Source: a virus (lineage: Duplodnaviria > Heunggongvirae > Uroviricota > Caudoviricetes). Taken from it: a DNA stretch of 4,005 nucleotides. Where the stretch lies: IMG/VR virus record IMGVR_UViG_2574180358_000004, one strand, 5' to 3'. This document shows, in pieces, positions 346-3,729 of this stretch (position 1 is its first letter; each line of letters starts with the position of its first letter). The translations under genes were made by a program, and so were the position numbers. The notes below the pieces were generated by a model, which was given only the letters and a program-made list of their open reading frames with translations, ran no database searches and had not been told where the DNA came from.

Positions 346-373
346 TCGCCGTCGTAGCAAATTCTGCGACCGG

Positions 374-396
374 GTTTAGCAGCCTGAATGATTGTG
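374..396 (+). repeat. Upstream copy of antisense-RNA target boxes (a1/b1-like): TTAGCAG and GATTGTG
   Basis: GTTTAGCAGC (374-383) and GATTGTG (390-396) recur at 543-552 and 574-580. Both are exactly complementary to CACAATC (502-508) and CTGCTAA (515-521) in the structured region, in the order expected for antiparallel pairing. Confidence 0.45.
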
Positions 397-439
397 CGGA
401 CAGCCGCAGATATCCGATATTGCGGTATTTTTGTGTCCG

Positions 440-535
440 TAAAACCGCGTTACGCCCAAATTATGGTGGGGCGTGATGGGGAGGCTTCGGCCTGCTGGTT
501 TCACAATCGCCAGTCTGCTAACCCCGTCACGTCCT
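440..535 (+). ncRNA. c4: c4-type antisense RNA candidate (immunity-I repressor RNA); boundaries approximate
   Basis: GC-rich structured stretch between the promoter region and icd with no convincing ORF. Predicted hairpins: 448-457/469-478 (10 bp including G-U pairs); 482-485/490-493 closed by a UUCG tetraloop; 495-498/511-514 with CACAATC in the loop; alternative closing stem 475-481/522-528. The two 7-nt elements complementary to the duplicated flanking boxes lie in a loop and a junction. Position upstream of icd-ant matches P1 immI organisation. Confidence 0.45.
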
Positions 536-542
536 GCCACCT

Positions 543-583
543 GTTTAGCAGCGGGTAGCAGGTTGTTAAACCTGATTGTGAGG
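543..583 (+). promoter_or_regulatory. Downstream target boxes (a2/b2-like) overlapping the icd Shine-Dalgarno; probable site of antisense translational repression
   Basis: GTTTAGCAGC (543-552) and GATTGTGAGG (574-583). The GAGG at 580-583 is the Shine-Dalgarno for the ATG at 592, so pairing with the RNA element CACAATC would occlude the ribosome-binding site. Confidence 0.45.
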
Positions 584-591
584 CCGTAACT

Positions 592-813
592 ATGGTTAAT
601 GCCAATCCTTGCGCACGCCAAGAATTCATCTGGCGTTTCTATTCCTGTAAAAAACACCACTATCACTTCGTCATCGCAGCAACAGAAGACGAAGCACGCT
701 CTCAATTGCCTGATGGTCCCTGCATTTTTACTGCCCGTTTTTCAACTAACTCGCGCAATTCACTTAGTTACTGGAACCTCCCCTTCTCTGCCGACGTTCA
801 GGGGGATTTATGA
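592..813 (+). CDS. icd: Small icd-like protein (73 aa), translationally coupled to ant
   Basis: ATG at 592 preceded by GAGG with 8-nt spacing. Its TGA stop (811-813) overlaps the ant ATG (810-812) as ATGA. Length and position match my recollection of P1 icd; no sequence-level confirmation is possible here. The alternative frame 599-835 cannot be fully excluded. Confidence 0.5.
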   Translation: MVNANPCARQEFIWRFYSCKKHHYHFVIAATEDEARSQLPDGPCIFTARFSTNSRNSLSYWNLPFSADVQGDL

Positions 814-1754
814 AAAAACCTCTCGTCACCCGTAATGAAATAGCCGAAGCGATCGCCCTGCATACAACCTGTATGCCGACACGGGAGATCCCCGGCGCAA
901 TTGCCAACTATTTCATGATAACCAGACGTTTTTATACCCGAACAGATAAGGCTGTGATCAACAAGCTACTGATAGCCGAGATCAGGGATTATTTGATTGA
1001 ACAAGGACGTCTACGTTACGCAACAGTGGCAGCAGAAATGAGAAAGGAGGCACATAGAATGACCGGTAATAATTTGAATGTTGAAAAACCAGCACCTGTT
1101 GCTTCAGCTACGCCATCACCAGCTGTGAATGTTATCTCCAACACTGGAGACACAATCGACAGCCAGACACTGTTAAAGATGGTCAATGAAGCTCGTAAGT
1201 TATGTGGGGAACCAGAGGTTCGGAACAACAAATTCATCGAAAAAATACTCGACGAATTAGAAGGTGAGGACGGTTACACAAAAAGTGCAACCGTGCCGCC
1301 AGGTGGCGGTACGCCTATGGTTGTCATAACCATGACCTACAAACAAGCCCTGCGAGTCGCCGCGCGCGAGTCAAAAGCGGTCCGCCGTTCGCTGATCGAC
1401 AAACTGGAAGAGTTACAGCAGGCAAACTCCCCTACCCCATCGATCCCCCAGACATTACCAGAAGCCCTACGCCTGGCTGCCGAGTTAGCAGAACAGAAAA
1501 TGCAGTTGGAACAACAGCTGGTGGCCGCAGCCCCTAAAGTCGATTTTGCCGACCGGGTATCAGTGGCCAATGGAATCCTGATCGGGAACTTTGCAAAGGT
1601 CGTTGGACTTAAGCAAAACGCCCTTTTCTCATGGTTGCGCCAGAACGGCATTCTCATGGCTTTTGGAGCGCGCAAAAACGTACCGCGCCAACAGTACATC
1701 AACGCCGGGTATTTCAGGTGCTGGATGATGAAAATGGCTACCAGATACGGCTGA
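810..1754 (+). CDS. ant: Antirepressor Ant (Ant1 form) with KilAC/ANT-type C-terminal domain; reading frame breaks near 1712-1715 so the ORF as written ends prematurely at 1754
   Basis: 314-aa ORF. ATG at 810 preceded by GGGGG (801-805). Residues ~200-300 (LPEALRLAAELAEQK...PKVDFADRV...NGILIGNFAKVVGL...WLRQNGIL...RKNVPRQQYINAGYF) align closely with the C-terminal half of the downstream KilA ORF. After GYF the frame yields RCWMMKMATRYG-stop, while the conserved continuation lies in the -1 frame. Confidence 0.8.
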   Translation: MKKPLVTRNEIAEAIALHTTCMPTREIPGAIANYFMITRRFYTRTDKAVINKLLIAEIRDYLIEQGRLRYATVAAEMRKEAHRMTGNNLNVEKPAPVASATPSPAVNVISNTGDTIDSQTLLKMVNEARKLCGEPEVRNNKFIEKILDELEGEDGYTKSATVPPGGGTPMVVITMTYKQALRVAARESKAVRRSLIDKLEELQQANSPTPSIPQTLPEALRLAAELAEQKMQLEQQLVAAAPKVDFADRVSVANGILIGNFAKVVGLKQNALFSWLRQNGILMAFGARKNVPRQQYINAGYFRCWMMKMATRYG

Positions 1755-1840
1755 CGCCCCAATTAACGGGTAAAGGCCAGCAGTGGTTAACTCGCAAGCT
1801 ACTTGATGCTGGTTTGTTAAAACCAGTAGCAATAGGTTAA
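1715..1840 (+). other. ant: Displaced C-terminal segment of ant in the -1 frame (QVLDDENGYQIRLTPQLTGKGQQWLTRKLLDAGLLKPVAIG); ant is either a frameshifted pseudogene or carries a 1-bp sequencing error
   Basis: The frame-2 translation from 1715 aligns with the KilA C-terminus (…RISFTTRITGKGQQWLMKRLLDAGVLVPVAATR). Restoring one T in the run at 1712-1714 (TATTTCAG to TATTTTCAG) gives the contiguous reading GYF-QVLDDENGY…. Confidence 0.6.
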
Positions 1841-3682: not shown

Positions 3683-3693
3683 ATTGCTCTAAT
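3683..3693 (+). promoter_or_regulatory. Partial C1-operator-like box (ATTGCTCTAAT) between repL and the downstream small gene
   Basis: The first 11 positions match the operator consensus exactly and the last 6 do not (11/17 overall). Location is intergenic, 4 bp after the repL stop. Confidence 0.25.
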
Positions 3694-3729
3694 CTGGAGT
3701 CACCTGGCGTTTTCAGTTTGAGGTCGGAG

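Follow-up and report, generated by a model that had tools for sequence, protein, structure and literature searches.

Antisense RNAs in phage immunity

The c4 RNA of P1 and P7 is a 77-nt antisense RNA processed by RNase P, which cuts at a GGU; the loop that carries the recognition element b' occludes a ribosome-binding site and a second element, a', adds specificity (PMC5320573, PMC2190699, PMC12197685). Full repression of the antirepressor gene ant requires c4, and Icd, encoded between the two, is an inhibitor of cell division (PMC8198154). The heteroimmunity of P1 and P7 has been put down to small differences within immI (PMC6906374).

A second system has been described in the Salmonella prophage Gifsy-1, where IsrK, a 77-nt terminated small RNA, acts in trans to raise, by a factor of more than 100, the translation of an ORF and an antirepressor encoded 3' of it; another RNA, STnc1160, is processed to about 80 nt and likewise lies 3' of IsrK (PMC4825925). 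The authors of that study likened the Gifsy-1 system to CI/seqA of the satellite phage P4 and not to c4 of P1, and in a 2025 review IsrK and c4 appear as unrelated items (PMC12197685). The P4 CI RNA is itself a processed small RNA that controls immunity and has complementary targets, seqA and seqC, both 5' and 3' of it on its own transcript (PMC4825925), a likeness to c4 that is drawn here from its description; it differs in causing transcription termination, with no covering of a ribosome site.

Organisation of the locus

The stretch of DNA analysed here, referred to as the window, comprises 4,005 nt of a Caudoviricetes record (IMGVR_UViG_2574180358_000004). The features on which the comparison with these systems turns are as follows.

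261-277, + strand: operator of the C1 repressor, Op(c4)/Op51 (TCTGCTCTAATAAATTT), at the aligned position of the annotated P7 operator and identical to it
316-344, + strand: sigma-70 promoter P1c4 (former P51b), TTGACC-17 nt-TATAGT, 10/12 consensus, at the position annotated in P1
351-432, + strand: IsrK-like leader RNA with the upstream target copy, from the isrK and c4-a1b1 model alignments
376-382, + strand: a1 box TTAGCAG, which the 371-386 hairpin presents in its loop; annotated in P1 as putative a1
390-396, + strand: b1 box GATTGTG, complement of b', re-extracted by script
465-541, + strand: mature c4 antisense RNA, 77 nt, by transfer of the P7 misc_RNA coordinates, the sequence being identical
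502-508, + strand: recognition element b', CACAATC, within the second internal hairpin (loop of 9 nt)
515-521, + strand: a' recognition element CTGCTAA, in a 7-nt single-stranded junction
545-551, + strand: a2 target box TTAGCAG, annotated as a2 in P1
559-574, + strand: spacer hairpin between a2 and b2, CAGGUU/AACCUG, -7.8 kcal/mol, from the predicted fold
574-583, + strand: b2 target box GATTGTG (574-580), which merges into GAGG, the Shine-Dalgarno of icd (580-583); annotated as b2 in P1
592-813, + strand: icd, 73 aa, cell-division inhibitor, with an ATGA overlap with ant, from the ORF list and NCBIfam phage_ICD_like (52.7 bits, cut-off 25)
810-1754, + strand: ant1/ant2 antirepressor, out of frame after 1716 owing to a 13-bp deletion

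The order of operator, promoters, leader, c4, icd and ant is common to P7 and the window. c4 is the first gene of the immI operon, with the C1 operator and the promoters on its 5' side and icd followed by ant on its 3' side. The GenBank records of P7 (AF503408, c4 as misc_RNA 51057-51133) and P1 (AF234172, misc_RNA 48343-48419) carry at homologous positions the C1 operator, promoters P2c4 and P1c4, a1, b1, the 77-nt c4, a2, b2, icd and ant1/ant2. Identity over positions 300-830 is 99.4% to P7 and 94.9% to P1, and from 347 to 716, a segment that takes in the leader, c4, all the boxes and the start of icd, the window is base-for-base identical to P7. Within 255-830 differences from P7 are confined to five positions (259, 291, 346, 717 and 806), that at 346 falling between the -10 hexamer and the transcription start. 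An earlier note on this DNA, made from the sequence alone, had recognised here the logic described for c4 of P1 and P7, and this was borne out, c4, a1, b1, a2, b2, the leader and the icd ribosome site all being identical to those of P7 and annotated as features in the P7 and P1 records. The window departs from P7 in that the backbone around immI is not that of P7 and in the 13-bp deletion in ant.

Identity and fold of the c4 RNA

A search with Rfam covariance models returned a match to the C4 antisense RNA family (RF01695) at 459-544 that covered the full model (positions 1-87) with 69.6 bits and an E value of 1.1e-12, against a curated cut-off of 45 bits. The c4-a1b1 target motif (RF03163) was recognised at 338-390, where its score of 54.6 bits likewise exceeds the cut-off (46.7). 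The identification of a c4-type antisense RNA made by eye was thus confirmed by the search. The region 459-544 is almost certainly the c4 of a P1/P7-like plasmid prophage immI operon, with P7 specificity and with the mechanism published for P1 and P7; it is an already known element, an ordinary antisense RNA of the P1/P7 type. What goes slightly beyond the existing annotation is confined to the covariation of the boxes and the link to IsrK, both set out below. The same search also returned weak matches to mir-2320 and ctRNA_p42d (E of about 0.3), which were dismissed as chance.

Like P7, and with the identical sequence, the window has the GGU (at 465) and the 3' CCACC. The 77-nt RNA has a predicted minimum free energy of -44.9 kcal/mol (z -5.7), and the minimum free energy and centroid structures coincide in a single dominant structure, in which a long closing stem surrounds two internal hairpins, in agreement with the Rfam consensus structure. 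In the predicted fold the second hairpin carries b' in its loop of 9 nt and a' falls in an unpaired junction of 7 nt, so that the folding that had been suggested as a check of the c4 assignment came out in its favour. The c4 of P1 resembles that of the window in scaffold, fold, position and mechanism.

Since the sequence is that of P7, the mechanism established for P1 and P7 is adopted for the window. On the strength of the P1/P7 experiments, the operon of leader, c4, icd and ant would be transcribed from the 316-344 promoter and from a C1-controlled promoter just upstream, and RNase P would cleave the precursor before the GGU at 465 to yield a stable 77-nt RNA. The exposed b' in its hairpin loop and a' in the junction would then pair with b2 and a2 on the mRNA of their own operon, and the pairing with b2 would cover the icd Shine-Dalgarno, leaving icd untranslated. 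Synthesis of Ant would then be expected to fail, both through premature transcription termination and through loss of the icd-ant coupling, and without Ant the repression by C1 would be kept, giving lysogeny and superinfection immunity. Control of ant through coupling to icd, as initially envisaged, is kept in this scheme and refined in one respect, in that the shut-off of ant is said to be achieved mainly by premature transcription termination; Biere, Citron and Schuster (1992) reportedly found that it is chiefly by this route that a block of icd translation lowers ant.

Target boxes and their geometry

All six 7-nt elements were recovered at the positions given in the earlier note, with spacers of 7 nt between a1 and b1, 22 nt between a2 and b2 and 6 nt between b' and a', and the downstream GATTGTG does run into the GAGG of icd, the ATG of which is at 592. 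The complementarity of b' and a' to both target copies, upstream and downstream, is exact over 7+7 nt, and the duplex of b' with b2 can be extended to 12 pairs including G:U (c4 498-509 with 573-584), which covers the whole of the GAGG. GATTGTG occurs in the entire window at 390 and 574 only, and TTAGCAG at both box sites and once more, at 1485.

It might be argued from the shortness of the boxes (7 nt), and from that alone, that they are chance repeats, or sites at which a protein binds the DNA, and not partners in RNA pairing. In 3000 dinucleotide-preserving shuffles of the region 338-620, one-sided complementarity arose 164 times, but the two-sided, correctly ordered bipartite 7+7 pattern was found in none (0/3000). 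The stronger case against this explanation comes from the variation among related loci considered in the next section.

The difference in spacing had led to the suggestion that the upstream and downstream interactions would differ in geometry. The spacing does differ, but the suggestion needs refinement. Unequal spacing of the boxes is a trait of the family and no peculiarity of the locus in the window: in the 166 distinct loci whose boxes are canonical, 7 - 12 nt separate a1 from b1 and 20 - 31 nt separate a2 from b2. Furthermore, the predicted hairpin at 559-574 leaves 7 unpaired nucleotides (552-558) in the a2-b2 spacer, the same as the length of the upstream spacer.

The spacer has a further property. 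The loop at 563-570 (UUGUUAAA) is complementary, with G:U pairs, to the a box (UUUAGCAG; 375-382 and 544-551), the P1 allele of the a box (UUUGACAG) would pair with it equally well, and in the minimum free energy fold of 338-600 the segment 371-386 is paired with 559-574. In the Stx2 and Gifsy-1 loci it is b' that the spacer mimics instead, pairing with b2. The pairing of the spacer loop with the a box may be a sequestration of the target in cis or may be a coincidence.

Immunity specificity and covariation of the boxes

The alleles of b' and a' are CACAATC/CTGCTAA in the window and in P7, CACTAAC/CTGTCAA in P1 and CGTAAGT/CTGTCAA in D6. A four-way alignment shows that the scaffold is conserved and that the differences of P1 and D6 from P7 cluster in the boxes, with complementary changes in a1, b1, a2 and b2. 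The c4 of P1 thus differs from that of the window in its recognition elements, and its targets are changed to match, giving a heteroimmune specificity. The earlier note had left open whether the specificity was that of P1, P7 or another phage, and the alignment with the immI regions of P1 and P7 that it had suggested supplies the answer: judged by sequence, the immunity specificity is P7-type, a', b' and all four targets being the same as in P7 and unlike those of P1. For cognate partners the duplexes are predicted at about -23 to -24 kcal/mol, against -10 to -14 kcal/mol for the c4 of P7 on P1 targets. The element in the window would be expected to repress superinfecting genomes of the P7 type and not those of the P1 or D6 type, and the assignment to a P7-type immI predicts which related phages this plasmid prophage excludes. 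Since the pairing established for P1 and P7 requires both short boxes, a difference of 2+2 bases is enough to render these two phages heteroimmune.

Natural variation bears on the pairing itself. An exact scan of viral contigs with 25 nt of the c4 scaffold yielded 119 loci; with the window, P7, P1 and D6 included there were 115 usable loci, 114 of them with boxes. In all 114 of these P1-family loci the four target boxes are exact reverse complements of the recognition elements in c4, at conserved offsets, and seven b' alleles and two a' alleles occur in 12 observed combinations. For 77 distinct sequences the entropy per column came to 0.919 for all three copies of the b element (b', b1, b2) and to 0.28 for all three of the a element (a', a1, a2); the remainder of c4 and of the leader stays at about 0 - 0.1, and the spacer that separates a2 from b2 is at 0.21. 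This constitutes strong comparative evidence that both copies of the target, the upstream one included, would pair with c4, and it is unusually clean in that a1 and b1, which the P1 annotation calls 'putative', turn out to be constrained by pairing just as the proven a2 and b2 are. It also disposes of chance repeats or protein binding sites as an explanation. Reverse complementarity between elements of a single strand, kept over 12 allele combinations in 114/114 loci, is a prediction of RNA pairing and not of a protein site, and the explanation, to which practically no credence can be given, is refuted by the covariation. Reverse complementarity is likewise kept in a wider enterobacterial family (L129-L367) over roughly 50 box combinations, a rough count since some of the listed specificities, e.g. 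GGTTTC, are scaffold matches.

The specificity of c4 in the P1-family loci (L004-L122) is combinatorial, on a near-invariant scaffold, and hybrids that combine the b' of P7 with the a' of P1 are among them. One viral contig (L064) matches the 25-nt seed, then diverges at once and is without complementary boxes; it may represent a disrupted or recombinant c4.

The upstream leader and its proposed relation to IsrK

The upstream copy of the target lies in a leader with a layout of its own: a hairpin at 351-370, the a1 hairpin at 371-386, the b1 box, a terminator-like hairpin at 404-425 and UAUUUUU at 426-432. The Rfam isrK model (RF01394) aligns to 351-432 with 43.7 bits and an E value of 2.5e-7, below its cut-off of 50; with the same model P1 scores 35.1 and D6 46.5. 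The match begins at about the point where transcripts from the 316-344 promoter should start, and the start itself is probably near 351. The hairpin at 404-425 with its UAUUUUU, at about -8 kcal/mol, is aligned to the terminator stem of isrK. No terminator was called in a consensus scan of 200-900, but the bulge and the long effective loop of this hairpin put it outside the rules of the scan, which therefore neither supports nor excludes a terminator here.

In Gifsy-1 the isrK match (79 bits) lies directly 5' of a C4-family RNA (69 bits), and the c4-a1b1 motif overlaps isrK. In the phages Stx2a_1447 and mEp460, too, C4 (83.6 bits) comes after isrK (67 bits), and D6 has the same order. The boxes of the Gifsy-1 and Stx2 phage loci also show three-way complementarity, with b2 running into a GAGG. 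The IsrK/STnc1160 locus of Gifsy-1 shares with the window the entire order of promoter, hairpin, a1 hairpin, b1, terminator (putative in the window), C4-family RNA, a2, spacer, b2 at the Shine-Dalgarno, small ORF and antirepressor; it differs in its box sequences (a is TTGGCG and b is TCACCG), in its lambdoid context and in a spacer that pairs with b2 itself. By its position STnc1160 should be the C4 homologue. It is proposed from these alignments that the a1/b1 leader of the window is the P1/P7 counterpart of IsrK and one part of a conserved module. IsrK and the a1/b1 leader of P1 and P7 would appear to be the same part of that module, a link drawn neither in the Gifsy-1 study (PMC4825925) nor in the recent review (PMC12197685). 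Loci at which the leader/IsrK module was located include, beside 351-432 of the window, 34131-34329 (- strand) of L128 and 1124-1325 of L125.

The module was surveyed more widely with a 15-nt seed from the c4 core, which gave 346 loci, 233 of them distinct. Under a strict rule by which c4 and both target copies must match exactly over 6 nt or more, 166/233 were canonical and 67/233 failed. A run of T between b1 and c4 is present in 164 of the 166 canonical loci, and in at least 143 of those it abuts a hairpin; a Shine-Dalgarno and a start codon are found at b2 in 160/166.

What the leader does is a separate question. It could serve to draw off c4 as a decoy, or it could be an attenuator that responds to c4. 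In the first case a1 and b1, carried on a short leader RNA of the IsrK type (~351-432), would titrate c4 off a2 and b2, in trans or in cis, and so activate icd and ant. This is consistent with the span of the isrK alignment, which takes in the terminator stem, with the order of isrK and then C4 in Gifsy-1, Stx2a_1447, mEp460 and D6, with the activation in trans by IsrK (PMC4825925), with the perfect covariation of a1 and b1 with c4, and with the T-run that follows b1 in nearly all of the distinct loci. Against it, the isrK scores of the window and of P1 are under the cut-off, the 404-425 hairpin is not called by a simple terminator scan, and the P1 and P7 records are without an annotated short leader RNA; moreover, the Gifsy-1 authors invoke a remodelling of the long mRNA, and in their hands a constitutively supplied C4-like RNA did not block the effect of IsrK (PMC4825925). 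Titration of c4 by the leader is on this balance a tentative proposal, and we would lean somewhat against it. In its fullest form the upstream a1/b1 would be no passive duplicate but the part that does the work in a leader RNA of the IsrK type (351-432, ended by a terminator), this leader and the icd ribosome site competing for c4; immI would then be, as would isrK of Gifsy-1, a switch of three RNAs (decoy or activator, repressor and target) made from one promoter, with a specificity that is combinatorial through the two boxes; this too is conceivable, with the chances rather against it.

In the second case c4 would pair with a1 and b1 on the nascent transcript and alter termination at 404-432, as does the P4 CI RNA with seqA, and would so limit its own synthesis together with that of icd and ant. 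The end of b1 lies 7 nt 5' of the 404-425 hairpin, a run of U follows the hairpin, hairpin and T-run are conserved family-wide, and the targets lie on both sides of the processed RNA as they do in P4 CI/seqA/seqC (PMC4825925). The sites at which c4 would pair do not, however, overlap the stem of the terminator itself; we consider such autoregulation unlikely.

State of icd, ant and the backbone

Repression of icd and ant by the P7-type c4, as adopted above, would be exerted in the window on an altered antirepressor gene. Compared with P7 and with NZ_OP927715, the closest plasmid, ant has lost 13 bp at 1716/1717 (CGGTGAAAGAAGT), with GGTG microhomology at the flanks. As a result of the frameshift Ant ends in 11 different residues in place of its last ~44, and its KilAC/ANT domain is broken off at position 72 of the 108-position profile. 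An exact search of viral contigs for the junction found it nowhere else, and none of the complete E. coli genomes matches window positions 1640-1800 without the gap; in the sequences compared the deletion is private to the window. The c4 here may control a dead antirepressor, and the final output of the circuit may be lost.

Downstream of icd the genes are ant, kilA and repL, as in P1 and P7. The backbone is mosaic: the segment from leader through c4 to icd is identical to P7, ant (1001-1500) is 78 - 87% identical to P7, and the sequence after 3694, past repL, is unrelated to it. The best matches to the whole window are plasmids of Salmonella and Escherichia fergusonii (98.6 - 98.7%), and records under the name 'Punavirus P1' reach 97.5%. 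Two further C1 operators were noted, one (TTTGCTCTAATAAATTT) at 1918-1934, before kilA, at the position annotated in P7 as Op(rep), and the other (ATTGCTCTAATCTGGA) at ~3683-3698, after repL, at the position annotated in P7 as Op(rap).
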